Positions 9,194 through 36,519 of a DNA stretch of 64,000 nucleotides are shown here, piece by piece; position 1 is the first letter of the stretch, and every line of letters begins with the position of its first letter. Made by a program: the position numbers and the translations under genes. The stretch comes from an uncultured Rikenellaceae bacterium (GTDB lineage Bacteria > Bacteroidota > Bacteroidia > Bacteroidales > VadinHA17), in the NCBI GenBank assembly GCA_963802145.1, contig CAWDHN010000012.1:291567-355566 (forward strand), given 5' to 3'. The notes below the pieces were generated by a model, which had not been told where the DNA came from, did not search any database, and saw only the letters and a program-made list of their open reading frames with translations.

Positions 9194-9212
9194 GATAAGA
9201 ATTCAGGCCAGA

Positions 9213-10739: not shown

Positions 10740-12410
10740 ATGCGAAAAAATCCCTTTTGCACCCTTGTATTAATATTTCTGTTGTTATTCGCCGGCTGCC
10801 GTCAGGGGAGCAACCCGGCCTCAGGACCGGGGAAGAAATCCGGGACTCCAATTACAGCCGCAACTGATGATTTCTACCAGGAGACAAGTCAGGAGGCAGG
10901 ACTCGATTTTGTTCACTCCATCGGCGATGACGACCTCACCAATATTATCCAGTCAGACGGCGGAGGCGCTGCCTTTTTCGACTTTGACCAGGATGGCTTC
11001 ATAGATATTTATGTGTGCAGCGGTACATGGCTTGAAGGATTCAGCAAGAGCGAAAAGCCATCTGAAATGCCCGGGAATCGCCTTTACAGGAACAGGGGCA
11101 ACGGATCATTTGAAGATGTTACGAAGAAGGCAGGTGCCAGCGGGCCATGGTACACCATGGGAGTGGTAGCCGGTGATTTCAACAATGACGGCTACCCTGA
11201 TCTTTTTCTCAGCAATTACGGAGCTAATGTCCTGCTGAGGAATGACCGCAACGGAACATTCACTGATGTAACAAAAAAAGCAAATGTTGCCGGCGGGAAT
11301 GAGTGCAGCGTCGGTGCCGCATGGGCGGATTATGACAATGACAGCTTTCTCGATCTCTATGTGGGCAATTATCTTGCCTTTGATCCGGATTACAAGTATT
11401 ACTATGCACCTGACGGATTTCCGGGACCAATGGCCTACGATGCCCAGAAGGATGTCCTTTACCATAACAACGGCGACGGTACCTTTGAAGATGTAACTGA
11501 GAAAATGGGAATCAGGGACATTGACGGAAGGGCAATGGGAGTCGGTGCAGCTGATTATGACGATGACGGGTTCATCGATATCTTCGTTGCCAACGATCAC
11601 ACATTGAACTATCTGTGGCACAACGATGGCGGCAAGGGATTTACAGATAAGGGAACCATGTCGGGAACCGGCTTCAGTCAGGGTGGAGAAGCCACCGTAA
11701 GCATGTCAGTCGACTTTGCCGATTATAATAACGACGGACTGCTTGACCTGTTTGTTTCGGATGACACCTATTGCTCCCTTTATGAGAATCTGGGCAACGG
11801 GGTATTCTCTGACAGGGGAGTCTCATCTAATATCTCAATGCAGGCTGCACAGTTCGTAGGATGGTCGTCTTCGTTCATGGATTTTGATAATGACGGTGAT
11901 CAGGACATATTCAAAACCAACGGCGCACTGAAACATCTGTATGGCCAGGAAGATCAGATTTTTGAAAATCAGGGGAACGGATTATTCAAGGATATTTCTC
12001 TGGAGCTCGGCAGGTATTTCAGCGAGGAACATGTTGGAAGAGGTGCATGCATCGGGGATTACGACAATGATGGCGATCTCGATATCTTCATAGTCAATCT
12101 TAACAGCAGGGCAGTTTTTCTCAGGAATAACAAGGGGAATCAGAACAACTGGCTTATGCTTGGACTGGAAGGTACTGTAAGCAACAGGGAAGGGATAGGG
12201 GCAAGGGTGAAGATAACATCCGGAGGCAAGACACAGATAGCACAGAGAAAAACAACCACCGGCTACCTTTCCCAGAATGATCCGAGAATTCATTTCGGCC
12301 TGGCAGGCAATAATATGGTCGAAAGGATCGAGATAAAATGGCCCTCGGGAAAGGTACAGATCCTTGAAAATGTAAAAGCCAACCAGATACTCGAAGTAAA
12401 GGAACCTTAA
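10740..12410 (+). CDS. CRTAC1-family FG-GAP/VCBS-repeat lipoprotein with a C-terminal ASPIC/UnbV domain
   Basis: Lipobox (LLLFAGC). Repeated FDFDQDGFIDIY, GDFNNDGYPDLF, ADYDNDSFLDLY, ADYDDDGFIDIF, ADYNNDGLLDLF, MDFDNDGDQDIF, GDYDNDGDLDIF. UnbV/ASPIC-type C-terminus (GIGARVKITSGGKTQIAQRKTTTGYLSQNDPRIHFGL..IEIKWPSG). Confidence 0.85.
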   Translation: MRKNPFCTLVLIFLLLFAGCRQGSNPASGPGKKSGTPITAATDDFYQETSQEAGLDFVHSIGDDDLTNIIQSDGGGAAFFDFDQDGFIDIYVCSGTWLEGFSKSEKPSEMPGNRLYRNRGNGSFEDVTKKAGASGPWYTMGVVAGDFNNDGYPDLFLSNYGANVLLRNDRNGTFTDVTKKANVAGGNECSVGAAWADYDNDSFLDLYVGNYLAFDPDYKYYYAPDGFPGPMAYDAQKDVLYHNNGDGTFEDVTEKMGIRDIDGRAMGVGAADYDDDGFIDIFVANDHTLNYLWHNDGGKGFTDKGTMSGTGFSQGGEATVSMSVDFADYNNDGLLDLFVSDDTYCSLYENLGNGVFSDRGVSSNISMQAAQFVGWSSSFMDFDNDGDQDIFKTNGALKHLYGQEDQIFENQGNGLFKDISLELGRYFSEEHVGRGACIGDYDNDGDLDIFIVNLNSRAVFLRNNKGNQNNWLMLGLEGTVSNREGIGARVKITSGGKTQIAQRKTTTGYLSQNDPRIHFGLAGNNMVERIEIKWPSGKVQILENVKANQILEVKEP

Positions 12411-12425
12411 AGCCACTGGCCCTCT

Positions 12426-13856: not shown

Positions 13857-13857
13857 T

Positions 13858-15903: not shown

Positions 15904-15915
15904 AATCATAAAAAA

Positions 15916-17109
15916 ATGTCTCACAAATATTTAATTAAGTACTCAGCTTTTACAATCATCCTGGCAGCAATTGTACTGGCTGGCATAATGCTTTTAAAAA
16001 GAGCGGATAAATCTGAAAAGCCGGTGAAGAGTGAACATATGTCCGTTTCAGGTACCTATACAAACAGTTCAGACAAAGATCTTCCGGGCAGTTCGGGTTT
16101 TATAAAAGAAGCAAAGGAAATGCCTGTCTATGGCAACTGGCGTAACTTCACAACAAAAGACGGACTGCTTTCCGATCATGCCTATACGGTGCGCATCATC
16201 GGAGACAGCGTGCTTGTTGGCACTCACGAGGGTCTTGCAGTCTACTCCGGGGGGAAATGGCGTAATTATACCACTAATGACGGATTGGCTCATAATGGTG
16301 TGGTGTCAATCGATTACAGCAAACTGACAGGCGATATCTGGATTGGAACCCTGGGGGGCCTGAACCGTTGGTCATCCGGTAAATTTGAAACTTTCAACCA
16401 GTTTAACAGCGGCATGCCTAACGATCTGGTCTATTGCGTTTATTGTGACGGGAAAGACGTGTGGGTTGCAACCGGAGGCGGAGCAGGACATTATGACACC
16501 TTTACAAGGGTGTGGGAAATATTCACTGAACAGAATGCCCCGATGCATGAGCCCTGGACCTATGGCGTTTCAACCGGCGATGGCAAGGCATTTATCGCTG
16601 CCTGGGGAGGAGGAGTGATAGAGTATAATATGGCAACCAGGCACTTCAGGGATTATGTCGACCCTGACGGCTTTATGGAAATAGATCTTCAGCCTGATGA
16701 TGGTATTATCCACGACATTACCACAGCTACAGCTTATGCAGAGGGTATCCTGTGGGTTTCAACTTACTTCGGGATGAGCCGGTATGACGGCAAAAACTGG
16801 AAGGGCTATTTTGATCACGACAGCGGCCTGGCAAGCAATTTTATCAACTTCCTCAGGGCTGAAGGCCGGAAGGTATTTGTTTGCAGCGATAACGGATTAA
16901 GCAGCACAGACGGGACCACATGGGTTACATATAAAAAGGACGATAACAGTGAAAACGGGAAGGCCATAATTACAAACGGAACAGAAAAAAAGGAGATCCC
17001 CTTATCACCTTCAATAGCACACAATTTTATTATCGGCGTGGATGCCGATGAAAATTACCTGTGGGTTGCTACCTCAAAAGGGGTCAGCCGTGGAGAACTT
17101 ATGAGATAA
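15916..17109 (+). CDS. Membrane-anchored beta-propeller protein with two-component-regulator propeller (Reg_prop) repeats and no kinase or output domain
   Basis: N-terminal TM helix (AFTIILAAIVLAGIMLL). Repeats of the Reg_prop type (TTKDGLLSDHAYTVRI..VLVGTHEGLAVY; TTNDGLAHNGVVSIDY..IWIGTLGGLNRW; SGMPNDLVYCVYCDGKDVWVATGGG). Confidence 0.65.
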   Translation: MSHKYLIKYSAFTIILAAIVLAGIMLLKRADKSEKPVKSEHMSVSGTYTNSSDKDLPGSSGFIKEAKEMPVYGNWRNFTTKDGLLSDHAYTVRIIGDSVLVGTHEGLAVYSGGKWRNYTTNDGLAHNGVVSIDYSKLTGDIWIGTLGGLNRWSSGKFETFNQFNSGMPNDLVYCVYCDGKDVWVATGGGAGHYDTFTRVWEIFTEQNAPMHEPWTYGVSTGDGKAFIAAWGGGVIEYNMATRHFRDYVDPDGFMEIDLQPDDGIIHDITTATAYAEGILWVSTYFGMSRYDGKNWKGYFDHDSGLASNFINFLRAEGRKVFVCSDNGLSSTDGTTWVTYKKDDNSENGKAIITNGTEKKEIPLSPSIAHNFIIGVDADENYLWVATSKGVSRGELMR

Positions 17110-17156
17110 ATAGAGATGACTATAACAGAAACAAAATTAAAATCACAATAACTGAT

Positions 17157-17732
17157 ATGGAGAACAGGCAGCTACTTATAGATCCGTCAAGAATCACGGA
17201 TGGAGAACGGGAAGAAATGATAAAATTAGGGATACTTTCTGAAGATAACCGTATACGTGAATACATATATCCTGAGCTTCACAGGGAGCGCCCGCCGATT
17301 GAGAAACATGTGGTTCATGCCCCGCAGGTTCTTAATGAGGCTTATAATTATCAAAAACCATCCTCCTTCTCCAGGGCATTAAGGCTTGAATTCGGAGGCT
17401 ATAAGATCTTGCTTATATCTGGCACTGCCAGTGTTAATGAAGAGGGCAAAGCCGAACACATCGGTGATTTCAAAGCACAGGCCTGGAGGACTTACAGGAA
17501 TATCACCACCCTGTTGTCTGCTGAGGATATGACGTGGCATGATGTAGTAAGGACCACCAACTATCTGAGGGACATTGAACGTGACTATGAGGAGTTTAAT
17601 AAGATCCGGACTTCCTTCTTCCGATGGCTGAATCTTGACCCGCTGCCTGCCAGCACCGGAATCCAGGCAAGGCTTTGCTGGGAAACCCTCCTTGTGGAGA
17701 TCGAGGCTTATGCAGTTTGTAAAATCAAATAA
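17157..17732 (+). CDS. YjgF/RidA-fold (endoribonuclease L-PSP superfamily) protein with an N-terminal extension of about 70 aa; no signal peptide
   Basis: Core ILLISGTASVNEEGKAEHIGDFKAQAWRTYRNITTLLSAEDMTWHDVVRTTNYLRDI...STGIQARL...LVEIEAYA. The SGTAS motif (canonical RidA has SGQ) is what I recall from the chorismatase (FkbO/Hyg5/XanB2) branch, which is unverified. I prefer the ATG at 17157 (MENRQLL). The track start at 17061 overlaps the upstream gene. Confidence 0.65.
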   Translation: MENRQLLIDPSRITDGEREEMIKLGILSEDNRIREYIYPELHRERPPIEKHVVHAPQVLNEAYNYQKPSSFSRALRLEFGGYKILLISGTASVNEEGKAEHIGDFKAQAWRTYRNITTLLSAEDMTWHDVVRTTNYLRDIERDYEEFNKIRTSFFRWLNLDPLPASTGIQARLCWETLLVEIEAYAVCKIK

Positions 17733-17742
17733 TTTACCTTAT

Positions 17743-19065: not shown

Positions 19066-19076
19066 CACATTTAGAA

Positions 19077-19955
19077 ATGGAGTCAGATAATTACAACGAT
19101 CCTGCAGTGATCGGAGGATGTTCAGTTCACGTCAGGGTGGACAGAAAGTCAAAACCTGATCCGACAATTGTTGATGTAAAGGGAATAAAGTTCGGATCTG
19201 CAGAGGTTGTCATTATTGCCGGACCCTGTTCGGTTGAAAGCCGCGAACAAATGATGGAGACAGCTAAGGCTGTCAGGTCAGCAGGAGGAGTGATTTTAAG
19301 GGGAGGTGCCTTCAAACCCCGTTCGTCTCCCTATAATTTCCAGGGACTGGGAGAGGAAGGACTGAAATTGCTTCAGGAGACCAGAAGTGAAACAGGGTTG
19401 CCAATTGTCACAGAAGTTATGGATACCCGGATGGTTGAACTGGTTGCCGGATATGCTGATATGCTGCAGATAGGCTCACGGAATATGCAGAACTATCCAT
19501 TGCTGAAGGAGGTCGGGATGCTCCGCAAACCGGTATTGCTGAAACGCGGAATGATGGCAACAATAGAGGAGTTTTTGCTGGCTGCAGAATACATTCTTAA
19601 CCAGGGAAACGAACAGGTAATCCTGTGCGAAAGGGGGATACGCACTTTTGAAACCGCCACCAGAAATACCCTTGATCTTGGCGCTGTGCCTATGCTTAAG
19701 CATCTGAGCCATCTTCCGGTGATTGTTGATCCGAGTCACGGAACCGGACACCGGTGGATGGTGCCTTCAATGGCCAAAGCAGCTGTTGCTGCCGGAGCCG
19801 ACGGACTCATAATGGAAGTACATTATAAACCCCATGAGGCCCTGTGCGACGGACATCAATCGCTGAGCCCCGATGAATTTACACTTCTGATGACTGATCT
19901 GAGGAAGATTGCACAAGCTGTCGGCAGGGATATTTATCCTCATGAGATTAAGTAA
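19077..19955 (+). CDS. 3-deoxy-7-phosphoheptulonate (DAHP) synthase, type I-beta
   Basis: [152 protein letters not shown]. This is the I-beta DAHPS pattern, not the KdsA pattern. Confidence 0.88.
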
Positions 19956-21069
19956 GGCCATCTGTCAGGCATGCCTGATTGCAACGGTTATAATTTTCGC
20001 TTCAGGGATAGCTTTTGCCCAGGATTCCTCACATCCGGGACAATCTGTCAAAATCGGATTGCTTATACAGGATAGCAGCTGGACTTCAGCAGTTCATGGA
20101 GCTGAGCTTGCCATCAGTGATGCAAACAGAAACGGCAGCTCAAACGGCAGTATGTTTCAGCTTGTTGTCAGGTCAATGGAAGGCCCGTGGGGAACCGGAT
20201 CAAAACAGGCGGTCAGCCTTATTTTTGAAGAGAGAGTGGGGGCTCTTGTTGGCATTCATGACGGACGAAATGCCCACCTGGTTGAACAGGCGGCCACAAA
20301 ATCGCAGGTGGTTTTCCTTTCGGCATGGCCTGGTGACCCTACCCTGTCGCAGGCATTCGTTCCCTGGTTCTTTAACTGTGTCCCGAATGACAACCAGCAG
20401 GCAGCTGCAATATTTAAAGAAATATATGAAATAAGGAGATATCGGAATATAGTTGTTGTTCATGATAAGGAATACGATTCCGAGAAGAGCTTTTCCAGCT
20501 TCATTAATATCATCAAAACGTCAGGAAAACCTGAACCGTTGCAATTCAATACTGAAGATTATGACCAGAAGACAGATGCTCTGGCTGATAAAATAGGCGA
20601 TTCAGATGCGGACTGTCTTATACTCTTTTGCGGGCCTCCGGTTTCATTAGAATTAACCAGGCAAATAAAAAAGAAAAATTATCTCCTTCCGGTTTTTGGT
20701 CCGATAGCCCTGCTGAATGAGAATATACTTTCATCCGGGGAATTGAAGGAGTTCGACAATGTGTTTTCAGTTCCTGCAGATAAATGGCCGGATGCGGAAA
20801 ACCGGAAATTCAGGAGGGAATTCGAAACAAAATATGGATACGTGCCAGGAATGGTTGCTACATATTCATATGACTGCGTGAGAGTACTTATTGAGGCTAT
20901 AAATCAATCAGGAAATTCCGATCGCGAGATGATACAGAATTCTCTGAAGAATATCCGCTTCAACGGTTTAACCGGGCCAGTTCAGTTTGATGATAAAGGC
21001 AACAGAATGGGAAAATTCGAAATGATGAAAACAAGGAACGGCCTTCCCGTCACCTTCAAAACTGATTAA
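19942..21069 (+). CDS. Second periplasmic substrate-binding protein, LivK/Peripla_BP_6 type (orphan)
   Basis: Signal peptide ([27 protein letters not shown]). SBP features ([52 protein letters not shown]). The ATG at 19942 overlaps the DAHPS stop by 14 nt. Confidence 0.72.
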
Positions 21070-21092
21070 GTTTAATTTGCTAATTTGGTGGC

Positions 21093-24000
21093 ATGAAAAA
21101 GTATTGTCTCTTTGTAGTGACCACTCTCCTCATCACATTATTTACGGGATGCAGGAACAGTGGTGAAAAATCCACGCAAAAATCGACGGATCTGATTACA
21201 GCCAGAACACTTGGGCTGGCATATCTTGAGGAGTTTAAGCTGGAAGAGGCTGAAAAGGAATTCCTGAAGTTCATTGATCTGGCCCCCGATGATAAGTTTG
21301 GCTATGCAAATCTCGGTCTTACTTACTTAAGGATGGCTAATTATCCGGATGCAGAAAAAGCACTCGCCAAAGCAATAAAGATCGATCCCAAAGATCCGGA
21401 TGTCAGGCTTATCCTGGCCACTGTATATAAAATGAACAATGAGCGTGAAAAGGCTATTAAAGAACTGTTAAGTGCACTTGAGTTTGCTCCTGATCATAAA
21501 AAAATACTTTACGAGATTTCCGAGTTGTATTCCACCCAGCCTGACGAAGATTCATGGAAACAACGCGAGAACTATATTGAAATACTTGTCCGGAATGCAC
21601 CCGATAATCTTGTCCCGCGCCTCAACCTTACAGATATCCTCATCAGGAAAGGTGAATTCGATAAGGCAGTTGAGCAGATGGAGATAATCAATAAGCAGTT
21701 TCCGGAATTCCCCAGGGAGGCTGTTGAATACTTTGACAAGACGCTCTCCTTACTGAGAAAAAAGGATAGGGAAAATGCAATTATCCAGTTTACTATTTTT
21801 CATAATTATCTGAAAGTTACCCCCCCTTACCAGGCCGGGATCATGGATCTGAAGGGCCCCGGAGGATCCCTTATCGGATTTCCGGTCATAACTTTCGACA
21901 GACGGGGTCCTTCATCCGGTAATGAAGAAAACAGGTCGCTGCTCGATATTATCAGATTTACCAATGTGGCTGCGGGAGCCGGTCTGGACATAATTCCGCG
22001 AACCGAAGAGGGTACCAATGCGGAATTCAGGTTTTCGTCCCACGTCGTAACATGCGATTATGACGGCGACGGAGATATTGATATCTATGCCGGCAGCTAT
22101 GATCCGGCATCCTCATCATATAAGCATTTTTTGCTCAGAAACGACATGGGCAAATATGCTGATGTGACCCGGGAAGCAGGCCTGAATCATTCCGGAATTG
22201 AAGCATCTGCAGCTTTTGCCGACTTTGATAATGACGGTTTCCCCGATCTGTTTGTTATGAAGGAGGGGGGCGACATGCTCTACAGAAATACAGGAAAGGG
22301 CACCTTTGAAGATATAACAGCCAGATCAAAGGCAGGCAGCAGGACCGGGGGTAAAAAGGCTCTTTTCTTCGATATGGATCACGACGGTGATCTGGATCTT
22401 TTTGAGATACTTCCGCAGTCGAATCTCTATCTGAGAAATAATTCAGACGGGACATTTGAGGATCAGTCTGCAAAACTTGGCCCGCAGACCGCAGGAATTA
22501 TTTCCACAGCCGCAGCTTTCGGAGATTTTGATGATGACGAGGATATCGACTTCATTGTTGTCAGTAAAAACTCAGATGTCTGCCTGTATTCAAATCAGAG
22601 ACAGGGCGTTTTCAGGGATATTGCTGCCGAAAGCGGACTGAAAGGGTATGAAGGAGCCGGGGCGGTTGCTGTAGGTGATTATAATAACGACGGATATCTT
22701 GACCTCTTTATCGGTTCTCTCACCGGAGAAAATCATGCGCTGTTAAGGAACCTGCGAAACGGCACTTTTGAGAAGGAGAAGAATAATTCAGAAATGCTCC
22801 GGTCACTTGAAAAGGTAAATGTCTTCGATGCTTCATTCATAGATTTCAATAATGACGGATTCCTGGATATTCTCGCGGCAGGAGAAGCACAGGGGATGGA
22901 TGGTCGCGGGATCAATCTCATTTACAATGACGGAAAAGGAAATTTCAGGAATGTTTCAGAATTATTGCCGTCTGAAGTAAAATCAGGAAAACAGACAGCA
23001 ATTTTCGATTATAACGATGACGGTGACCTCGATGCGCTGATTGCCGGAATAAATGGCGGAGTTGCCCTGCTAAGGAATGACGGCGGGAATAACAACCATT
23101 TTATAACAATGAAGCTGGTGGGACTGAGAGCAGGCAGCGCAAAAAATAACTACTTCGGCATCGGAGCGAAAGTCGAAATGCGTGCCGGCGATCTCTATGA
23201 AACAATGGTTGTAACCAATCCCAATATCCACTTTGGGATAGGCAGCAATTCGAGAGCCGATATCATCAGGATCAGATGGACTAACGGAGTGCCTCAGAAC
23301 ATTTTCATGCCGGTATCAGACCAGTCACTGGTAGAGCAGCAGACCCTCAAGGGTTCATGTCCTTTCCTCTATGGATGGAACGGGGAGGAATATGTTTTTG
23401 TGAAGGATATCTTATGGAGAAGCGCTCTCGGGATGCCGACCGGAATAATGGGCGGCACCACCTCATATGCCTTTGCTGATGCCTCGGATGATTATCTGAA
23501 AATTCCGGGCGAGATGCTGAAGCAGAACAATGGGAATTATATTATCCAGGTCACATCCGAACTCTGGGAAACCATTTACATTGACGAACTTGAACTTGTT
23601 GCAGTGGACCACCCCGATTCACTTGATATATTTGTTCCTGAACAATTTGGTCCTCCTCCCTTCCCGGGACCGAAAATCCTTACCGTTAAAGAGAAACATG
23701 CACCGGTATCAGCCGTGGATTCGGAAGGGAATGACGTGCTTTCCTTTATATCCCGGAAAGATGACATCTATCTTGCAGGTTTCAAACCGGGCAAATACCA
23801 GGGAATAACTGAAATGAGGGACCTTATAATTGATCCCGGGCAAATTGATGTGTCAGGAAGATTTTATCTTTTTATGAATGGATGGATCTTCCCGACCGAT
23901 GCAAGCATAAACGTGGCAATATCACAATCAGATGACATCAAAGTGACTCCTCCTTTAATCCAGGTTTTGAATAAAAAGGGTGAGTGGGTGACAGTGACCG

Positions 24001-24665
24001 GCAGTGTTGGGTTTCCGATGGGGAAAGATAAAACCGTAATAGCCGATCTTTCGGGCAAATTCCTGTCAGAAGACCACCGGGTAAGGATCAGGACAAATAT
24101 GGAAATATACTGGGACCAGATCTTTTTCGCTGAAGATCTGCCCGATGCTCCTGTTGTAAATAATGCTCTCAGTCCTTCATCTGCTGATCTTCACTTCAGG
24201 GGATTCTCTGAGCCATTCAGAAAAGGAAGCCGTTACGGACCTCACTGGTTCGATTATTCTGTTGTTGAAAAGGGACCGAAATGGAGAGACCTGACAGGAA
24301 ATTATACGCGGTTCGGTGATGTCCTGCCACTTCTGTCAGAGTCGGATAACAAATATATTATAACAAATGCCGGCGATGAGACTACTGTAAGCTTCTCTGC
24401 TGCGGAATTACCTCCCTTACCGGAAGGATGGAAGCGGGACTTCCTTATCCGAAGCGTCGGATGGGTTAAAGACGGAGACCTGAACACCGCTTTCGGCAGC
24501 ACGGTTCTGCCTCTGCCGTTCCATGGAATGAAAAGCTACCCTCCGTCAGAAAGCGATACTTACCCGGATACTCCTGATTTGCAGAAATATAACCGGGAGT
24601 ATAATACAAGGGTGGTAACAGCGGATGAATATTTAAATGCGTTAAGAGTAAATGATAAAAAATAG
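21093..24665 (+). CDS. Large lipoprotein: TPR repeats, FG-GAP/VCBS repeats, an ASPIC/UnbV domain and a C-terminal region of about 480 aa with unknown function (CRTAC1 family)
   Basis: Lipobox (LFTGC). TPR-like N-terminus (YANLGLTYLRMANYPDAEKALAKAIKIDPKD). FG-GAP motifs (CDYDGDGDIDIY, ADFDNDGFPDLF, FDMDHDGDLDLF, GDFDDDEDIDFI, GDYNNDGYLDLF, IDFNNDGFLDIL, FDYNDDGDLDAL). UnbV-type segment (GIGAKVEMRAGDLYETMVV..IRIRWTNG). Confidence 0.85.
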   Translation: MKKYCLFVVTTLLITLFTGCRNSGEKSTQKSTDLITARTLGLAYLEEFKLEEAEKEFLKFIDLAPDDKFGYANLGLTYLRMANYPDAEKALAKAIKIDPKDPDVRLILATVYKMNNEREKAIKELLSALEFAPDHKKILYEISELYSTQPDEDSWKQRENYIEILVRNAPDNLVPRLNLTDILIRKGEFDKAVEQMEIINKQFPEFPREAVEYFDKTLSLLRKKDRENAIIQFTIFHNYLKVTPPYQAGIMDLKGPGGSLIGFPVITFDRRGPSSGNEENRSLLDIIRFTNVAAGAGLDIIPRTEEGTNAEFRFSSHVVTCDYDGDGDIDIYAGSYDPASSSYKHFLLRNDMGKYADVTREAGLNHSGIEASAAFADFDNDGFPDLFVMKEGGDMLYRNTGKGTFEDITARSKAGSRTGGKKALFFDMDHDGDLDLFEILPQSNLYLRNNSDGTFEDQSAKLGPQTAGIISTAAAFGDFDDDEDIDFIVVSKNSDVCLYSNQRQGVFRDIAAESGLKGYEGAGAVAVGDYNNDGYLDLFIGSLTGENHALLRNLRNGTFEKEKNNSEMLRSLEKVNVFDASFIDFNNDGFLDILAAGEAQGMDGRGINLIYNDGKGNFRNVSELLPSEVKSGKQTAIFDYNDDGDLDALIAGINGGVALLRNDGGNNNHFITMKLVGLRAGSAKNNYFGIGAKVEMRAGDLYETMVVTNPNIHFGIGSNSRADIIRIRWTNGVPQNIFMPVSDQSLVEQQTLKGSCPFLYGWNGEEYVFVKDILWRSALGMPTGIMGGTTSYAFADASDDYLKIPGEMLKQNNGNYIIQVTSELWETIYIDELELVAVDHPDSLDIFVPEQFGPPPFPGPKILTVKEKHAPVSAVDSEGNDVLSFISRKDDIYLAGFKPGKYQGITEMRDLIIDPGQIDVSGRFYLFMNGWIFPTDASINVAISQSDDIKVTPPLIQVLNKKGEWVTVTGSVGFPMGKDKTVIADLSGKFLSEDHRVRIRTNMEIYWDQIFFAEDLPDAPVVNNALSPSSADLHFRGFSEPFRKGSRYGPHWFDYSVVEKGPKWRDLTGNYTRFGDVLPLLSESDNKYIITNAGDETTVSFSAAELPPLPEGWKRDFLIRSVGWVKDGDLNTAFGSTVLPLPFHGMKSYPPSESDTYPDTPDLQKYNREYNTRVVTADEYLNALRVNDKK

Positions 24666-26349
24666 CTTTGCGAACTCTGCGACTTTGTTGCGGACTTTCA
24701 GGTTAAAATGGATCTTCTGTATCAGCCTGGTATTTGTCTCTTATTCCATGACAGCCCAGAAGCGGGTAATCAGATTCACTGATGTCACAAAACGGTCCGG
24801 CATAGATTTCATATATACATTCGGAGATCTCTCCTATAAAAACATTATTGAAAGCAGCGGGTCTGGAATCACAGTATTCGATTACAACAACGACAATCTG
24901 ATGGATCTGTTCATGATGAACGGAACCTGGCTTGAAGGCATATCTGATCCGGACGGGAAGAAATTCATCAACACTCCCGACAGGCTCTACAGAAACAATG
25001 GCAACGGAACATTTACCGAGGTCGCTGAAAAGGCAGGAGTCAATGATACCAACTGGAGCATGGCTGCCGGAGCAATAGATTATGATAATGACGGAGACCA
25101 GGATCTCTACCTGCTTAATTATGGTCCGAATGTTTTCTTCAGGAATAATGGCAACGGAACATTTACTGACATTACAAAGCTTACAGGCCTCCGTGGTCCG
25201 GACAAGTTAAACGGATTTGTAAAATGGAGCATCGGAGTCTCCTTCTGGGACTATAACCTCGACGGCAGGCTTGACGCCATGGTCGGGAATTTCCTCGCGT
25301 TCGATCCGGATTACTTTACACCCACGACCCCCGATCTGATGCCTCAACCATCAGAATATAAAGGTCAGGCTTCGATGCTGTATGAACAACAGCCTGACGG
25401 AACATTCAAAGATGTCACCGAAAAGAACGGATTGTATTATCCCGATTCAAAATGCATGGGCCTTACTGTATTTGATTATGATGATGACGGGGACCTTGAT
25501 ATTTTTCAGGCCAATGATCACCATCTGAACTACATGTTCAGGAACGATAATGGTGTCTACAGGGAGGTTGGCGTTGAAATAGGCGTGGCTGCCAACAGCC
25601 ATGGCATAGGGACCGGTTCAATGCATGGAACAATAGGTGATGTTGACGGTGACGGATTAATTGACATCCTTGTCGTTGATCTTTCATACGGAGCCCTTTA
25701 CAGGAACAAAGGCAATGGATTCTTTGAAGACATTACCGCATCAAGCGGTATCCAGGTGCCTCTGGCAGGGAAGGGAGGTTGGGCTTCCGCCTTCATTGAT
25801 TTTGACAATGACGGTGACCTCGATATAGTATCGGCAAACGGCACGGCAGAGGAGCTCATTCTGCAATACCCGCTCCTGCTTGAGAATGACGGGAAAGGAC
25901 ATTTCAGGGATACGGGAAAGGAGTATGGAGAATATTTCAGAACGAAACGTTCGGGCAGGGGACTTGCCGTGTGGGATTATGATAATGACGGAGATATGGA
26001 TATCATTGTATCGCATGTCGATCTTAACGGAACTGCAGCGCTTCTCCGAAACGACGGAGGGAATTCGAATCACTGGCTTGGCCTTACATTGAAAGGCAGC
26101 AAGGGACCGGCCTCAGCAATAGCCGCCAAGGTGGTCGCAACAGCCGGGGGGAAGAGACAGGTACTTGTCAATCAATGGACAACAGGCTATCTGAGCAATA
26201 ATGATCCCAGGCTGCATATAGGGCTGGGAAGTGCAAAATCAATCGATACTCTTGAAATATTCTGGACAGGAGGCAAGAAAGAGGTTTTTTACAATGTACC
26301 TGCTGACAGATATATTACAATAATGGAAGGAAAGGGAATTTTAAAGTAA
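24652..26349 (+). CDS. CRTAC1-family FG-GAP/VCBS-repeat protein with an ASPIC/UnbV C-terminus
   Basis: Signal-like N-terminus. Motifs FDYNNDNLMDLF, IDYDNDGDQDLY, WDYNLDGRLDAM, FDYDDDGDLDIF, GDVDGDGLIDIL, IDFDNDGDLDIV, WDYDNDGDMDII. C-terminus AAKVVATAGGKRQVLVNQWTTGYLSNNDPRLHIGL..LEIFWTGG. It overlaps the upstream gene by 14 nt. Confidence 0.85.
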   Translation: MIKNSFANSATLLRTFRLKWIFCISLVFVSYSMTAQKRVIRFTDVTKRSGIDFIYTFGDLSYKNIIESSGSGITVFDYNNDNLMDLFMMNGTWLEGISDPDGKKFINTPDRLYRNNGNGTFTEVAEKAGVNDTNWSMAAGAIDYDNDGDQDLYLLNYGPNVFFRNNGNGTFTDITKLTGLRGPDKLNGFVKWSIGVSFWDYNLDGRLDAMVGNFLAFDPDYFTPTTPDLMPQPSEYKGQASMLYEQQPDGTFKDVTEKNGLYYPDSKCMGLTVFDYDDDGDLDIFQANDHHLNYMFRNDNGVYREVGVEIGVAANSHGIGTGSMHGTIGDVDGDGLIDILVVDLSYGALYRNKGNGFFEDITASSGIQVPLAGKGGWASAFIDFDNDGDLDIVSANGTAEELILQYPLLLENDGKGHFRDTGKEYGEYFRTKRSGRGLAVWDYDNDGDMDIIVSHVDLNGTAALLRNDGGNSNHWLGLTLKGSKGPASAIAAKVVATAGGKRQVLVNQWTTGYLSNNDPRLHIGLGSAKSIDTLEIFWTGGKKEVFYNVPADRYITIMEGKGILK

Positions 26350-26361
26350 AACCCATAAAGT

Positions 26362-27690
26362 ATGAATAATCAATACATAAACAAGGTGGTCGATCTGACC
26401 AATCCAGCAAAGAATACAATTTATAACATGACGCATGAGGAAGCCGTTGAAGCTGTCAGGTCAGGAAACACAGAAGCGGTCAGGAAGATAGATGGTCAGT
26501 TTTCACTTGTCTCCGTCGATGGGAAAACTATCCGGATGGCAAGGTCTATTGGCCGTCCGATCCGTTATTTCATCGCTAAAGTACCGGCCGGACCACAACT
26601 GGTGATTGCCGAACGGATTGATGTCATTTACGAGTATCTTAAGCAGGAAGGTCTTGATCACCAGTTCCATCCCTCTTATACAAGGATGGCCCCTGCGCAC
26701 TATATAACAAAAATAGAACTCCTGGGCTGTCCCGATCCCAACCCGGTATATGAAAGGTTCTTTAAACCGGAGAGAAACAAATACTCTTCTTCAGATATTT
26801 CCCGGTTAGGTGAACTTTACATAAGAACACTTTATAATGAAATAAAGAAATGGCTGAGGTTCCGTGCCAGTGCCGGACCCGTTGGCATTACCTTTTCAGC
26901 CGGAGTTGACAGCGGGGCTCTTTTCCTCCTGACTTACCAGGCTCTCAGGGAACTTGGCGAAAGCCCGTCGAGGCTTAAAGCCTTTACACTTAGTATCGAC
27001 GGAGGGGGCGAGGATCTGGCACAGGCCAGGAAATTCCTCGATGACCTGGATCTGGGATTTTTCCTTGAAGTAATTGAAGCAGATTATTCAAGTCTCGACT
27101 GGAAGAAAACCGTAAAAGTTGTTGAGGATTACAAACCTCTTGACATACAGTCAGCTACAATGAACATGGCGCTTTTGCGAGGCATACGTTCCCGGTATCC
27201 GGACTGGAAATATATGATTGACGGCGACGGTGGGAATGAAAACCTGAAGGATTATCCCATCGAAGAGAATCCGGAACTTACGATCCGGAGTGTGCTGAAC
27301 AACCTGATGCTTTACCATGAAGGATGGGGAGTCGATTCAATAAAACACTCACTCACCTACTCCGGAGGACTCAGCAGGGGATTTATGAGGACATATACCA
27401 CAGGCGAAAGCCTTGGCTTTGAATCTTTCAGTCCCTATACGTTGCCAAATGTAATTGAAGTCTCGGAAGGCATTCCATTCATAGATATCACTGACTGGGA
27501 TCATAATAAGCTGTATGATCTTAAGGGACAGATTGTTTCTGACGGAGTGAAAGCAGTCACGGGAATGGCCATGCCTGTATTTCCCAAGAGGCGTTTTCAG
27601 CATGGGGCAGCTTCGGGAGATGCCTTCAGAAACCATTTTCCTGAAAAGGAGATAGCCTACCGGAAAGAGTTTCTTTCACAATATGAATGA
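26362..27690 (+). CDS. Asparagine-synthetase-B-like PP-loop ATP-dependent amidoligase lacking the N-terminal Cys nucleophile
   Basis: PP-loop-like SAGVDS at nt 26896-26913 (GITFSAGVDSGALFLLT). The N-terminal region resembles a degenerate AsnB glutaminase fold (IDGQFSLVSVDGKTIRMARSIGRPIRYF). The protein starts MNNQY, so it has no Cys2. No signal peptide. Confidence 0.55.
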   Translation: MNNQYINKVVDLTNPAKNTIYNMTHEEAVEAVRSGNTEAVRKIDGQFSLVSVDGKTIRMARSIGRPIRYFIAKVPAGPQLVIAERIDVIYEYLKQEGLDHQFHPSYTRMAPAHYITKIELLGCPDPNPVYERFFKPERNKYSSSDISRLGELYIRTLYNEIKKWLRFRASAGPVGITFSAGVDSGALFLLTYQALRELGESPSRLKAFTLSIDGGGEDLAQARKFLDDLDLGFFLEVIEADYSSLDWKKTVKVVEDYKPLDIQSATMNMALLRGIRSRYPDWKYMIDGDGGNENLKDYPIEENPELTIRSVLNNLMLYHEGWGVDSIKHSLTYSGGLSRGFMRTYTTGESLGFESFSPYTLPNVIEVSEGIPFIDITDWDHNKLYDLKGQIVSDGVKAVTGMAMPVFPKRRFQHGAASGDAFRNHFPEKEIAYRKEFLSQYE

Positions 27691-28630
27691 CGATCCCGGG
27701 TTCGTTATCGATGACCGGTGGATATTGTCCATACGGGGGGAGAAGAACGCCGTTGACCCGCGCAAACCATATGCATGGCTGGTTGAGAAAGAACGCACCG
27801 CGTCAGGAATAATAGAGGATACAGCGATTATTTTTCTCACAAACAGGGAATGTCCGTTCCGTTGCCTGATGTGTGATCTGTGGAAAAACACCACCGATGA
27901 TTCTGTGCCGGGAGGGGCTATCCCTGAGCAGATTGAATGGGCTTTAAAACAACTGCCTGCAGCAAGGAACCTTAAACTATATAACAGCGGAAGCTTTTTT
28001 GATGAGAGAGCCATACCTGCAGAGGATTATAAAAGCATTGCATCACTTGTCAGCGATTTTGAGACAGTTATTGTAGAAAGCCATCCCAGGCTGATCAATG
28101 AAAAATGTCTGAATTTCAGAAAAATGCTTAAACCTGATTTACAGGTTGCTCTTGGTCTCGAAACCGTACATGCCGGGGTGCTCAGGAAACTCAATAAACA
28201 AATGACCCCGGAGGATTTCAGTAAAGCGGTCAGTTATCTTAAGCAGCATGACATACTGTCAAGGGCGTTTATTCTGCTGAGACCTCCCTTCCTTTCGGAA
28301 TCAGAAGGCATCTTCTGGGCAGAAAGGTCAATCGATTTTGCCTTCAGTGCCGGAGTGGAATGCTGCACGGTTATTCCTGTGCGGGCAGGTAACGGGGCAA
28401 TGGATCTGTTAATGGAAAAAAACTGCTTTGAACAGCCAGATATCCGCTCCCTGGAAACAGTCCTGGAATATGGTATCAGGCTCAATGCAGGTCGTGTTTT
28501 TGCAGATGTGTGGGATTTGGAAATGTTTTCCGGTTGTAAGAAATGTCTCGATGAAAGGACCAACCGGTTAATTGCCTTAAATCTGAACCAGGAAATAACC
28601 GGTCCGGTAAGATGTACATGCAGCTCGTAA
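27683..28630 (+). CDS. Radical SAM enzyme
   Basis: CX3CX2C at nt 27851-27874 (NRECPFRCLMCDLW). TIM-barrel-type continuation (LKLYNSGSFFD, VIVESHP, LGLETVHAGVLRKLNK). It overlaps the AsnB-like gene by 8 nt. I cannot assign a subfamily by eye. Confidence 0.8.
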   Translation: MNDDPGFVIDDRWILSIRGEKNAVDPRKPYAWLVEKERTASGIIEDTAIIFLTNRECPFRCLMCDLWKNTTDDSVPGGAIPEQIEWALKQLPAARNLKLYNSGSFFDERAIPAEDYKSIASLVSDFETVIVESHPRLINEKCLNFRKMLKPDLQVALGLETVHAGVLRKLNKQMTPEDFSKAVSYLKQHDILSRAFILLRPPFLSESEGIFWAERSIDFAFSAGVECCTVIPVRAGNGAMDLLMEKNCFEQPDIRSLETVLEYGIRLNAGRVFADVWDLEMFSGCKKCLDERTNRLIALNLNQEITGPVRCTCSS

Positions 28631-28642
28631 TGGCGAGAACAA

Positions 28643-31612
28643 CTATTGGCTCATGTCACCTCTGAAAAAGCTTTCCGGCGGCCCCAGATAGGATGGTTTT
28701 GCTCCTCCCGTATTAATTACGATCTTTTCAAGGACAATGCCCGGATCGATCATCCATATCTTAAGGGTGTGATATCCGGCTTCGCTGACTGAGAGGTCTG
28801 CCTTTACATACCTGGTGTTGTCCATCACGGTCTTTTCCCACTCCCTGTTTCCGTTCTGCGCGTTGAACTCTTTCGGCACGACAGTGATAACCTGAGGAGT
28901 CTCATCATCGAATGATATGCCTATTCTGAAATCCCTGTCAGGAAGAAAATTCAGGGAAGGGGCGACGTGCAGCAGGGTTTGAAACTTACCGGTCGAGAAA
29001 AGATACATCTGATATTCGAGACAGGGAGAATCCATGCCAGGTATTGCCGGTGGCGCATCTGTCACAGCTGTTGCGCGCATGGCTGAAAGAGTGCGGCCAT
29101 AATCTTCGATCAGTTCCCAGTATCTGTCTACTCTGTTTATCAGAGCCGTATAATGTTCTGCTTCGATGGAGACGTATCCTTCGGCCTCAACAAATCCCTT
29201 CAGGGTGGCAACCTGCGGTACGGCAGGATTGAATGCCGAAAGGGCTACAGTAACCTCGCTGCCGGCGCCGCTCACCTTTATGGCGCCCTGATGAGTGCCA
29301 TAGGTAAGCAAACCCCAGTCTATCCCTATGTTGATACGATGCTCTCCCGAAACAGAACCTGTGTGATTACTTATTATTATCCAGGGATTATCCGTGGTCA
29401 CTGAGAACTCAAATGTCTCCGTGCCTCTGTTAAACACCTCTATATAACGTTCCTGCCTGTTGAATACATCAAACGGGGGCAGGGCAGGAGGCGTAATCTC
29501 TCCCGGCCACGATTTGTCGGAGCCCTCGACGGCCACACCCATTGAGGAGGTCTGAGGCACTTCGATACGGCTGAGTTTTATTGCCCTCAGGCTGTTGAAG
29601 GGAGGGTCAGCCCAGTTAGTGTATCCCAGGTGAGCCTGGTCCATGAAGTGCTTCCATTTTCCTCCGGCGAAAGAGCGGTTGTAGTATCCCATCAGGGCAG
29701 TGTCAGCCTGAAACAGAGCCTCTGTTCTTTCGGCCATCTCATTGGTCATCGATCTTGCCTGCGATGCATAGAGCGCATTCTTTCCGGCTGTGACATACAG
29801 CTCATTGACCAGTGCGCTGGCTTTTACCGGGAAGAGAACCAGGTCATAGAAAGCGTCATGCACCTCTTCCGGAAGCTCCTTTTGTATCTCTTCGGCCCTG
29901 GCGGCCAGAGCATTATACTCATTGACTATCCACTCCGCCTCTCGGTAGTCCGTAAGGCTGTATGTAAAGGGGCTGAGCAGCTCAGGCTTGCGGCGTCCGT
30001 TGAATTTTGTGTACAGTGATATGATGCCGGCAATCTCAACGGCATGGTCAGGTCCGAACTCACGGGCGCACCATTGTGAAGTATATTCCCGCAGGTCTTT
30101 GCTGCCATGTGCCTCAGTGTCCCGGGCGAGAGAGAGAAAATATTCCATCGGGAATTCATAGCCCTTGAAGTGCCCGACATTTACGATCCATATCCTGTCG
30201 GCTCCGTATTGTTTTGCAAGCGACAACTGGTCCCATATTTTCGGGATAGGATTTGTATTTATCCACTGGTAGCTGCGGGGTCCGCCGTGGTAGTCGAAGT
30301 GGTAGTAAACACCTGCCCCGCCGCTGCGCAGGCGCTCATCAGCTGAAGGCAGCCTTCTTACGTTACCCCAGTTATCCTCCGCCCACAACAGGGTTACGTC
30401 ATCAGGCACCCGCAAACCTGCATTGTAGTAATCCTGCACCTCCTTATAGAGGCACCACAGCTGAGGCACTTTTGTCACATCGGGATTAATCTCTTCAGAT
30501 ATAAGCCGGCGCTGGATGTCAACTATCTTTTCAAGTTTGGCTATATTGGCTTCGGGTCCTCCCGGTCCCATCTCAGTGTCGTCGGCACCGCGCAGTCCAA
30601 TTGTGATAATGCTTTCATAGTTCTTGTTCCGTCTGATTCCATCACGCCAGAATTTTACAAGGGTGTCAGCATGGCTGGTCCAGCTCCAGCTGCCAAGGGT
30701 CTTCTGATACCGGCGGTCCCACTCTTTCTGTGCCCTCAGCATCGGCTCCTGATGGCTGTTGCCCATGACGATTCCATACTCATCGGCCAACCTGGCATTA
30801 AGGGTGTCATCCTCGTTAAAGGCATTGTTCCACATTGCCGGCCAGAGGTAATTCGCCTTCAGCCTGAGCAGCACCTCGAAGATTCTCGCATAGAACTCGC
30901 TGCCGTAGTTGGCCACACCCGGGGGTACTGGCGGATTAACAGAAGGTGTCACCTCACCGTATGTGTGCTGAACCCACCTCGTCAGCGCAGGGTATTCATC
31001 ATTCAGAAATATACCCCTGTATCTGACCGAAGGTTCACCGGATACAAGGCGGCCGGGGTTAATGTAAAGCTCATCGGTTTTCCGGACCGGCACGCCAGCC
31101 CACCAGTACCACGGTGAGACTCCGATCTGTTTTGATATTTCATATATACCGAAAATTGTTCCCCGCTTGTCGCTCCCCGCGATGACCAGGGCTTTCCTAA
31201 CACCCGGGAATGGCCTGTCGACAGTTTCAATGAGATATGACTCCCATTTGCCGTTTATTTCGCTTACATCAATCCTCCCTTTTCTTATGAGCCTGTCGAT
31301 CAGCTGACTCCTGCCAATCGTACCGGCCACTATCAGCATATCAGAACGCGGAGCTTTTGCACTTGCCCCGAGTGTCGGCTTTGTCCCCGTGACACGGTAA
31401 AGGTCACTCTGCAGATCAGTGACTGCTCTTATGACTCCGGGCCAGTCATCGGGGCTTACGCTGAGCGGAGCACACAGACCGGGAGAGGCAAGGGTCAGTG
31501 ACCCTTCACTTCTGACCGTGGTGACTGCCGGGGTCTCAACAGCTTCCTGGCCGCTTGCCGGCATGCCGGAAAAGGGAATGATCAGAAGTAATGATGCAAC
31601 TACCTTATACAT
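28643..31612 (-). CDS. GH115-family xylan alpha-glucuronidase
   Basis: 989 aa with a signal peptide. Motifs I associate with GH115: AGSDKRGTIFGIYEISKQIGVSPWYWWAGVPV, YRGIFLNDE, LKANYLWPAMW. Confidence 0.78.
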   Translation of the reverse strand: MYKVVASLLLIIPFSGMPASGQEAVETPAVTTVRSEGSLTLASPGLCAPLSVSPDDWPGVIRAVTDLQSDLYRVTGTKPTLGASAKAPRSDMLIVAGTIGRSQLIDRLIRKGRIDVSEINGKWESYLIETVDRPFPGVRKALVIAGSDKRGTIFGIYEISKQIGVSPWYWWAGVPVRKTDELYINPGRLVSGEPSVRYRGIFLNDEYPALTRWVQHTYGEVTPSVNPPVPPGVANYGSEFYARIFEVLLRLKANYLWPAMWNNAFNEDDTLNARLADEYGIVMGNSHQEPMLRAQKEWDRRYQKTLGSWSWTSHADTLVKFWRDGIRRNKNYESIITIGLRGADDTEMGPGGPEANIAKLEKIVDIQRRLISEEINPDVTKVPQLWCLYKEVQDYYNAGLRVPDDVTLLWAEDNWGNVRRLPSADERLRSGGAGVYYHFDYHGGPRSYQWINTNPIPKIWDQLSLAKQYGADRIWIVNVGHFKGYEFPMEYFLSLARDTEAHGSKDLREYTSQWCAREFGPDHAVEIAGIISLYTKFNGRRKPELLSPFTYSLTDYREAEWIVNEYNALAARAEEIQKELPEEVHDAFYDLVLFPVKASALVNELYVTAGKNALYASQARSMTNEMAERTEALFQADTALMGYYNRSFAGGKWKHFMDQAHLGYTNWADPPFNSLRAIKLSRIEVPQTSSMGVAVEGSDKSWPGEITPPALPPFDVFNRQERYIEVFNRGTETFEFSVTTDNPWIIISNHTGSVSGEHRINIGIDWGLLTYGTHQGAIKVSGAGSEVTVALSAFNPAVPQVATLKGFVEAEGYVSIEAEHYTALINRVDRYWELIEDYGRTLSAMRATAVTDAPPAIPGMDSPCLEYQMYLFSTGKFQTLLHVAPSLNFLPDRDFRIGISFDDETPQVITVVPKEFNAQNGNREWEKTVMDNTRYVKADLSVSEAGYHTLKIWMIDPGIVLEKIVINTGGAKPSYLGPPESFFRGDMSQ

Positions 31613-31635
31613 TTCAGATGGGTTGGTTTAATGCT

Positions 31636-33015: not shown

Positions 33016-33087
33016 TGAGTTGAAATTTAATCAGTTACTCTGTATAATCTTCCTGTGGCGACAGACATAATGGCACATGTGCCGGGA

Positions 33088-35361: not shown

Positions 35362-35382
35362 GGTCTATTAAGTATTATCTGG

Positions 35383-36504: not shown

Positions 36505-36519
36505 ATTACGGGTTCTGTT

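Follow-up and report, generated by a model that had tools for sequence, protein, structure and literature searches.

What could an asparagine-synthetase-like enzyme that has no glutaminase nucleophile be doing beside a radical S-adenosylmethionine (rSAM) enzyme, in genes so close that they overlap? This question is raised by a 64,000-nt stretch of contig CAWDHN010000012.1 (assembly GCA_963802145.1, positions 291,567 to 355,566 of the forward strand; hereafter the window) from an uncultured Rikenellaceae bacterium, in which a gene of the AsnB superfamily is followed directly by an rSAM gene. From our analysis, the two genes evidently constitute a real, strongly conserved, and widespread enzyme pair. 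With a probability of about 0.5, they encode a two-enzyme cytoplasmic module in which a carboxylate, for which we favor a small acid, would be adenylated and given a C–N bond without glutamine, and radical chemistry would then take place on the same substrate.

Layout and conservation of the gene pair

Both open reading frames (ORFs) were found on the plus strand of the window where an initial annotation had placed them. The 8-nt overlap from which that annotation had read translational coupling was found as well; this overlap, ATGAATGA, is common to the stop codon of the AsnB-like gene (TGA, 27688–27690) and the start codon of the rSAM gene (ATG, at 27683) (Table 1). The AsnB-like gene begins with the ATG at 26362, and its homologues are likewise 442 amino acids (aa) long. 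The protein had been described as starting MNNQY, without the glutaminase Cys2, unless an upstream in-frame start supplied it. An in-frame TAA (26347–26349), with which the preceding gene ends, lies 12 nt before the ATG, so that there is no earlier start and no Cys2, and a wrongly placed start hiding this residue was thereby ruled out. The pair closes a run of 12 tightly packed plus-strand genes (10740–28630), as had been noted before, and a convergent GH115 gene begins 12 nt past the end of the rSAM gene.

Conservation was estimated from the 80 best loci of GTDB species representatives, a sample that is biased towards close (Bacteroidota) relatives; individual loci are cited below by L numbers. 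Whether the two genes are kept as neighbors had been an open point of the initial annotation. In 74 of the 80 loci, the AsnB-like gene is followed on its own strand by the rSAM gene; 65 of these 74 show an overlap of the two genes, and in 57 of the 74 the overlap is the identical 8 nt. These counts rule out a chance adjacency of the AsnB-like and rSAM genes. The six exceptions comprise a locus that ends at a contig end (L059), one in which the AsnB-like match covers only residues 1–392 of 442 (L031), and four in which the rSAM gene is absent from the locus sequence examined (L069, L075, L078, and L080).

A close relative of the AsnB-like protein is encoded in at least 591 of 600 candidate stretches from GTDB species-representative genomes. 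Homologues fall into more than 8000 protein clusters, with 80–93% identity within Bacteroidales and ∼60% identity to homologues from Planctomycetota and Verrucomicrobiota. The pair is also kept at ∼28–40% identity in Planctomycetota, Verrucomicrobiota, Acidobacteriota, and Armatimonadota. Distant branches that retain it are Blastocatellia (L084), Chthonomonadaceae (L085), Aquisphaera (L086), Thermoanaerobaculia (L087), Balneolaceae (L088 and L089), and Pirellulaceae (L090). The pairing holds even in L087, where the rSAM protein shows no more than 28% identity and the AsnB-like protein comes from a remote branch of the family. Two very distant AsnB-like relatives have no rSAM neighbor, one in a Berkelbacteria genome and the other among typically archaeal genes, and a metagenome scan with the most distant subfamily gave five weak matches (28–31% identity). 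The two genes are co-translated, and their joint inheritance extends over at least five bacterial phyla. No description of an AsnB-like/rSAM pairing was found in the literature searched, including that on bacterial RaSEA homologues and TIGR01210, which agrees with the earlier remark that the pairing belongs to no described pathway. The clade and the pairing are without a characterized member and represent a new combination within known superfamilies.

The two proteins of the pair

The only Pfam domain of the AsnB-like protein is Asn_synthase (PF00733; residues 170–304, 8.7e-9, 35.9 bits against a gathering score of 21). In NCBIfam, it matches only TIGR01536, at 32.8 bits, which does not reach the equivalog cut-off of 267.1. 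A profile of 17 diverse family members aligned residues 166–417 to residues 222–458 of E. coli AsnB with 96.5% probability (hhalign). The PP-loop SAGVDS, located exactly as claimed, aligns with SGGLDS of AsnB; S179, A180, G181, D183, and S184 are invariant among 39 homologues, and the loop is the canonical SGGxDS in more distant relatives. Within DGDGGNEN, the residues G288, G290, G291, and E293 are invariant among the 17 diverse members, and T266 and R272 align with AsnB T322 and R325 (hhalign). K409, which is invariant in the 39 close homologues and nearly invariant in the 17 diverse ones, aligns with AsnB K449, which we take to be the conserved catalytic Lys; a Lys of this type is common to all AsnB-type enzymes. 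Because the PP-loop, T266/R272, DGDGGNEN, and K409 all align with AsnB, the adenylate-forming machinery is intact. A near-invariant segment of approximately residues 296–343, including YSGGLSRG (333–340), is specific to the family and has no AsnB counterpart.

The likeness to AsnB/ASNS is therefore that of a homologous synthetase domain over ∼250 residues in which the PP-loop, the Mg/AMP motif, and the T/R/K residues are kept, whereas the AsnB-like protein has no N-terminal Cys and no detectable Ntn glutaminase domain and is ∼110 residues shorter. Its identity as AsnB was rejected, since the nucleophile, the glutaminase domain, and a TIGR01536 score at the cut-off are all missing. The initial annotation had also seen a remnant of the AsnB N-domain, and this claim found little backing. 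Among the 17 diverse members, none showed a GATase domain (Pfam, E ≤ 1). When residues 1–165 were aligned with AsnB 1–230 (hhalign), the collinear alignment of residues 20–158 to AsnB 94–221 was non-significant (E = 0.3). The AlphaFold model, built from a 39-sequence alignment, has a mean predicted local distance difference test score (pLDDT) of 55; it is good only for the PP-loop core, and poor in residues 290–362 and in the N-terminal region, where it is unreliable. An N-terminal AsnB-like remnant is plausible.

No PDB chain was matched at E ≤ 10 by the AsnB-like protein, either with the single sequence (phmmer) or with the 39-member profile. The fold matches of its low-confidence model are generic, with ASNS as the best and LarE, NadE, TtuA, and CarA also present; CarA stands at rank 35 with a TM-score of 0.36 on this model, and ASNS, LarE, and NadE match equally well. 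The family profile retrieved only 809 hits (E ≤ 1e-3) among 1.84 billion representatives, and canonical asparagine synthetases were not retrieved. Because of this narrow retrieval, the family is a separate, compact clade.

The rSAM protein matches TIGR01210 (RaSEA) over residues 34–313 of 315 (1.5e-32), at 113.1 bits against a cut-off of 212.15, which is not reached; its homologue from L084 scores 89.3 bits. RaSEA is its only specific relative, and the NCBIfam match to MnmL/YtqA is far weaker. The CX3CX2C motif, again exactly where it had been reported, is invariant as CP[FYL]RC[LV]MC across phyla. Near the C-terminus, C285, C288, and C311 are invariant in eight sequences from four phyla, and a fourth Cys is present at a position that shifts by one (CX2C...CX1-2C); this motif may be a zinc ribbon or a second Fe–S site. 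The AlphaFold model is a confident TIM barrel (pLDDT 90.5), which Foldseek matched with probability 1.0 to MgmA (top), Elp3, PFL-AE, CysS, MiaB, and LipA at TM-scores of ∼0.5, with no specific neighbor. The PF04055 score is 24.6 bits against a gathering score of 29.5, and many close homologues carry a precomputed PF04055 match. Membership in the rSAM superfamily is supported by the motif, the fold, and the TIGR01210 match. No cobalamin or SPASM domain was found by Pfam or NCBIfam, and PDB sequence searches with the protein and its family profile gave nothing relevant. JGI labels many bacterial homologues ‘archaeosine synthase beta-subunit’, a label that is an over-annotation, because the scores lie under the RaSEA cut-off and ArcS is absent.

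Both superfamily assignments evidently rest on significant profile matches, beyond short motifs. Classification by hidden Markov models, which the initial annotation had suggested, placed both proteins outside the well-characterized subfamilies, as the membership tests for AsnB, beta-lactam synthetase (beta-LS)/CarA, and RaSEA were negative. Both proteins are acidic (pI 5.9 and 5.2), and neither has a signal peptide.

Genomic contexts outside and within Bacteroidia

Outside Bacteroidia, the usual unit consists of the AsnB-like gene, the rSAM gene, and then a gene for a flavoprotein of around 510 aa (495–533 aa). This three-gene operon was found in L072, L074, L077, L079, L084, L085, and L087–L090, with flanks that are unrelated between loci. 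For the flavoprotein, weak resemblances were found to QhpG (80 bits, with the cut-off at 240), to the halogenase CmlS, to LodB/GoxB, and to geranylgeranyl reductases. NAD-salvage genes (L088 and L089) and alternative complex III genes (L079) beside the operon are not conserved elsewhere and were set aside as functional partners, as single-locus neighbors. FG-GAP/ASPIC genes also stand beside the pair in Limisphaerales (L077), Blastocatellia (L084), and Aquisphaera (L086), which makes four phyla in all. They are accompanied by an NMT1-type ABC importer in L084 and L086, and near the AsnB-like gene, L082, L084, and L086 encode substrate-binding proteins together with ABC importers. In Aquisphaera, a 1180-aa equivalent of the TPR and FG-GAP lipoprotein of the window (Table 1) is encoded upstream of the pair. 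In L084, the gene immediately upstream of the pair encodes a RidA fusion. The gene for a 409-aa chorismatase-like protein comes immediately downstream in L032, and lies no more than 10 kb away in L023, L033, L041, and L045. No conserved small ORF was found near the pair or the three-gene operon in nine loci, where only antisense shadows of high-GC genes were seen, and no riboswitch or RNA element was found upstream of either, save one tRNA in L088.

A membrane protein of ∼290 aa, weakly RnfD-like, is encoded after the FG-GAP/ASPIC gene in three loci (L084:2536–3426, L086:8086–8952, and L067:6102–6908). It is 63% identical between the acidobacterium (L084) and the planctomycete (L086) and 52–58% identical to the Bacteroidota copy; this cross-phylum identity, unusually high like that of the pair, suggests that the system moves horizontally. 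The window has no homologue of this protein. At L084:11921–13671, an MNIO gene (DUF692; BufB/ApyH/HvfB-like) comes right after the three-gene operon, at this locus only; next to it is a 289-aa gene whose N-terminal part gives a weak NHLP-type match.

The flavoprotein gene is absent from the Bacteroidia loci and from the window. The 12-gene cluster is conserved in Bacteroidia in two arrangements, the pair included. Among its genes are two that resemble hydrazine synthase (HZS) subunits (Table 1). Because their scores are far below the NF052339 and NF052342 cut-offs, the products are HZS homologues and not HZS; the beta-gamma-like protein is composed of a propeller and a MauG-like di-heme part. 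In its arrangement of the FG-GAP gene, alpha, beta-gamma, and the two substrate-binding proteins, the cluster corresponds to the non-anammox ‘clade III’ cluster of HZS homologues (PMC12758564); in a term search of that paper, neither radical SAM nor asparagine synthase was mentioned. A Reg_prop protein is also encoded in the cluster. The most constant neighbor of the pair is an FG-GAP/ASPIC gene: of 65 loci, 46 have one on the same strand immediately before the pair, and 68 of 80 have one no more than 10 kb away. Most other cluster products bear signal or lipoprotein N-termini, unlike the proteins of the pair. The DAHP synthase, which is present in 25 of 80 loci and missing from the Maribacter versions, is a stand-alone enzyme without a chorismate-mutase domain, and its gene lies between the two substrate-binding-protein genes. 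Starts are uncertain for two ORFs: the RidA-like ORF (GTG) shares 49 nt with the gene before it and is extended at the N-terminus by ∼100 aa without a domain, and the first substrate-binding-protein ORF (TTG) overlaps the RidA-like ORF by 98 nt and has its substrate-binding domain from residue 109. The initial annotation had left it open whether the pair tailors the product of the cluster or is an independent two-gene module. The self-contained operon, its spread over several phyla, and the unrelated flanks favor an independent module, yet in Bacteroidia the pair is tightly tied to the 12-gene cluster.

Table 1. Features of the gene pair and of the 12-gene cluster that it closes, in window coordinates.
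Feature	Coordinates	Strand	Basis and remarks
FG-GAP/ASPIC lipoprotein, first operon gene	10740..12410	+	Pfam; lipoprotein-type N-terminus
HZS alpha-like gene	12426-13856	+	NF052339 1.3e-23, 82.9 bits vs 800; 1 CXXCH
HZS beta-gamma-fusion-like gene	13825-15903	+	NF052342 3.3e-68, 230.5 bits vs 1250; 3 CXXCH
RidA/chorismatase-like (YjgF fold) protein	17061..17732	+	Pfam L-PSP 1.3e-15, weak FkbO_Hyg5-like_N match
Peripla_BP_6 substrate-binding protein 1	17635-19065	+	Pfam
Type I-beta DAHP synthase	19077..19955	+	NCBIfam NF006421, 454 bits, above cut-off
Peripla_BP_6 substrate-binding protein 2	19909-21069	+	Pfam
TPR and FG-GAP/ASPIC lipoprotein, 1190 aa	21093..24665	+	Pfam; in 40/80 loci
Secreted FG-GAP/ASPIC-UnbV (CRTAC1-like) propeller protein, 12-nt gap before pair	24652..26349	+	Pfam
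Predicted AsnB-superfamily PP-loop adenylating enzyme gene without glutaminase	26362..27690	+	442 aa, starts MNNQY
PP-loop SAGVDS, S179-S184, ATP pyrophosphatase signature	26896..26913	+	Read from sequence
DGDGGNEN, D287-N294, counterpart of AsnB SGEGSDE (Mg/AMP site)	27220..27243	+	hhalign
K409 in KRRFQxG (here KRRFQHG), aligned to AsnB K449	27586..27588	+	hhalign
8-nt gene overlap ATGAATGA (translational coupling)	27683..27690	+	Read from sequence
rSAM gene, RaSEA (TIGR01210)-related subfamily	27683..28630	+	315 aa
CX3CX2C (C57, C61, C64), ligands of SAM-binding [4Fe-4S] cluster	27851..27874	+	Read from sequence
C-terminal Cys motif C285-x2-C288 ... C311-x-C313	28535..28621	+	Alignment

The surroundings of the cluster were also recorded. 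On the minus strand, genes for SusD (3310–4938) and a SusC-like TonB-dependent receptor (4958–8059) are found, and an OmpR-type response regulator and a HAMP histidine kinase (8492–10589), divergent from SusC/SusD, lie directly before the 12-gene operon. Loci L035, L046, and L049 likewise have SusC/SusD genes flanking the pair, and in L012 the pair is followed by a regulator–kinase pair and a TonB receptor. The region as a whole may be one regulated uptake locus. In a Bacteroidales variant (L046:12297–15251; also L035 and L049), genes for an S58 (DmpA-type) peptidase, a URO-D-family protein, and a creatininase-family amidohydrolase come after the pair, and SusC, SusD, and a 1108-aa FG-GAP/ASPIC protein are encoded before it; these neighbors may hint at the catabolism of a nitrogenous compound. 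Past the rSAM gene, the minus strand of the window carries a xylan-utilization set (28643–37980: GH115, a XynC-like protein of 459 aa, GH3, GH10, and a major facilitator superfamily sugar transporter), which is probably unrelated to the pair because GH115 follows it in only 1 of 80 related loci.

Proposed function of the pair and rival explanations

In the proposed module, the AsnB-like enzyme would adenylate a carboxylate with ATP, releasing AMP and pyrophosphate, and the adenylated carboxylate would be joined to a nitrogen that does not come from glutamine. Free ammonia, an amine, an amino acid, or an intramolecular amine could supply this nitrogen. The rSAM partner, probably in complex with the AsnB-like enzyme, would abstract a hydrogen from the same substrate by means of its 5'-deoxyadenosyl radical. 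Such a complex on one substrate is suggested because RaSEA, the only characterized relative of the rSAM protein, works that way with ArcS. ArcS, which is inactive outside its complex with RaSEA, adds lysine to preQ0, and the resulting preQ0-Lys is turned into archaeosine by holo-RaSEA (PMC11298593). By analogy, one option would be the formation of an amide with an amino-acid N-donor, followed by radical C–N cleavage and imine hydrolysis, and the recurrent RidA-type neighbor would then hydrolyze the imine by-product.

The likeness to ArcS–RaSEA lies in the combination of a C–N-bond-forming enzyme with this type of rSAM enzyme, and the dependence of ArcS on the complex has its parallel in the translational coupling of the genes here. 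The archaeosine system is, however, euryarchaeal whereas the hosts here are bacteria, and the partner here is a PP-loop enzyme that would adenylate a carboxylate whereas ArcS is of the TGT/PUA type and acts on a nitrile. No ArcS- or TGT-like gene and no tRNA-related domains were found in the cluster of the window. The identity of the rSAM protein as RaSEA was rejected, given the score below the cut-off, the absence of ArcS, and the bacterial hosts. The joining of an ATP-dependent C–N-bond-forming enzyme with an rSAM enzyme is also found in QueC–QueE (7-deazaguanine) and in EpmA–EpmB–EpmC (beta-lysylation of elongation factor P), the latter with a hydroxylase as well. The components of these systems are not homologous to those of the pair, and the likeness is one of working logic only.

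As the substrate, we favor a small carboxylic acid supplied by primary metabolism, whose origin may be chorismate or an aromatic amino acid, over a ribosomal peptide. This preference is due to the DAHP synthase and RidA/chorismatase-like protein of the Bacteroidota clusters, to the third gene elsewhere, which encodes a QhpG/halogenase-like flavin monooxygenase resembling an aromatic hydroxylase, and to the self-contained operon without a conserved precursor gene. The product, or an imported substrate, would be tied to the secreted FG-GAP/ASPIC propellers and the substrate-binding proteins/ABC importers, and in Bacteroidia also to the HZS homologues. Several points weigh against this assignment. 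Each chemical step is drawn from homology, and, given the distant kinship with RaSEA (113 bits, with the cut-off at 212), the radical reaction may be of another type. With a pLDDT of 55, the pocket cannot be read from the model of the AsnB-like enzyme. The links to RidA, chorismatase, and DAHP synthase are found mainly in Bacteroidota and are absent from many three-gene operons. QhpG, LodB, and GoxB, which are modifiers of protein Trp, and the MNIO of L084 point towards a peptide or protein substrate, and the inter-phylum identity of ∼60% would also fit a macromolecular housekeeping target. A bolder extension, which we regard as speculative and rather improbable, is that the pair and the flavoprotein form a widespread glutamine-free pathway for installing nitrogen. 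In such a pathway, an amino-acid N-donor would be ligated to a carboxylate that originates from chorismate or from an aromatic amino acid, and the carbon skeleton of the donor would be cut away by the rSAM enzyme, which would give a new amide or quinone-type cofactor or ligand for the FG-GAP/ASPIC propellers and HZS-like heme proteins.

The main rival to a small acid is a protein or peptide target, which we consider unlikely. The AsnB-like enzyme would amidate, cyclize, or ligate a carboxylate on a chain on which the rSAM enzyme and the flavoprotein also act, and this chain might belong to a secreted FG-GAP or heme protein that is modified ahead of its export, or to a conserved protein of the cell. 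Asparagine-synthetase-like (AS-like) enzymes are established peptide modifiers, with ∼300 uncharacterized ones associated with peptides that are made by the ribosome and modified after translation (RiPPs); some work with oxidative enzymes such as MNIOs, and the nitrile synthetase PesC accepts L-glutamine or ammonia (PMC13060819). The AsnB-like protein shares with lasso cyclases, TsrC, ScdTA, and PesC the predicted ATP activation of a carboxylate in a biosynthetic operon, and in L084 the BufB/ApyH-like MNIO gene and the weakly NHLP-type gene adjoin the three-gene operon. The best named relatives of the flavoprotein include QhpG, LodB, and GoxB (tryptophan hydroxylation in proteins), the top fold match of the rSAM protein, MgmA, is a protein glutamine methylase, with the protein activase PFL-AE also matching, and the beta-gamma-like protein of the cluster has its MauG-like di-heme part. 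The MNIO, however, occurs in one locus only, and the QhpG-type matches are far below cut-offs and are shared with halogenases and geranylgeranyl reductases. Unlike the RiPP systems, the pair has no precursor peptide among the ORFs of the nine loci and no RiPP recognition element, leader peptidase, or exporter among the neighbors in the window, where the 12-nt gaps and the overlap leave no room for a precursor gene. A classical RiPP layout was rejected for want of a conserved precursor ORF around the nine loci, and no link of RiPP AS-like enzymes to RaSEA-type rSAM enzymes was found in the literature searched. Modification of a nucleoside in tRNA or another nucleic acid, by a PP-loop ATPase and an rSAM enzyme of the RaSEA/Elp3/MnmL clade with the flavoprotein as a third step, is improbable in our view. 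RaSEA is the only specific rSAM relative, MnmL/YtqA match more weakly, Elp3 and MiaB are among the best fold matches, and the three-gene operon is self-contained and highly conserved amid variable flanks. Many PP-loop enzymes do act on tRNA. Nevertheless, neither protein has an RNA-binding domain (PUA, THUMP, or TRAM), both are acidic, and an ArcS or TGT partner is missing; the folds of rSAM enzymes acting on peptides and small molecules score as well, and the repeated tight operon linkage is with secreted FG-GAP proteins and importers.

The initial annotation had likened the loss of Cys2 to beta-LS and carbapenam synthetase (CarA), that is, to the ATP-driven closure of an intramolecular lactam in a small natural product, here with rSAM tailoring. 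Like the pair's first protein, as predicted, these enzymes (CarA, PDB 1q19) belong to the AsnB superfamily and form an amide independently of glutamine via an acyl-adenylate; the glutaminase nucleophile is missing, K409 falls on the region of the catalytic Lys in AsnB-type enzymes, and CarA is among the fold matches. Carbapenem clusters such as that of thienamycin also combine a CarA-type enzyme with rSAM enzymes. Beta-LS and CarA keep the full two-domain AsnB architecture of ∼500 aa, whereas the AsnB-like protein is ∼60–110 residues shorter, its N-terminal region being far shorter and without a detectable GATase fold, and neither its sequence nor its profile matches beta-LS, CarA, or any other PDB entry. 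The neighbors in the window (FG-GAP, heme, substrate-binding, DAHP synthase, and RidA proteins) include no clavam or carbapenem pathway genes, and no genes for CarB/CarC, CEAS, nonribosomal peptide synthetases, or polyketide synthases. An identity of ∼60% over five phyla with changing flanks is unlike a specialized antibiotic cluster, and the rSAM enzyme is not of the cobalamin-dependent type, as no B12 domain was found. Identity as beta-LS/CarA was accordingly rejected on sequence, architecture, and context, the analogy did not hold up, and lactam chemistry of this kind is quite improbable; intramolecular amide formation as such is possible. A nitrogen-capture scheme is highly improbable. A periplasmic HZS-like complex would make hydroxylamine- or hydrazine-like species that are bound by the substrate-binding proteins and imported, the AsnB-like enzyme would trap them as a hydroxamate or hydrazide, and the rSAM enzyme would process the adduct. 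The Bacteroidia operon does join the pair with the HZS alpha-like and beta-gamma-like heme proteins and two substrate-binding proteins, and the AsnB-like enzyme would have to draw its nitrogen from a source other than glutamine. The pair and the three-gene operon are, however, widespread in loci without HZS-like genes (8–10 kb flanks), the HZS similarity is far below the family cut-offs, and the window has no ABC permease. Low-similarity hzs-like genes in KSB1 genomes have likewise been judged unlikely to encode hydrazine synthase (PMC10732223).

Both enzymes come from well-studied superfamilies. The pair is common: homologues of the AsnB-like protein form more than 8000 clusters, and the pair itself occurs in at least five phyla. 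Once worked out, its chemistry would give the asparagine-synthetase-like and RaSEA-like families a reaction type not seen in them before. Cultured carriers, including Maribacter arenosus, M. luteus, Aquisphaera insulae, and Maioricimonas sp., make the pair open to experiment. In essence, the pair would provide a first functional handle on the bacterial CRTAC1-like FG-GAP/ASPIC proteins and on the non-anammox homologues of hydrazine synthase (PMC12758564).

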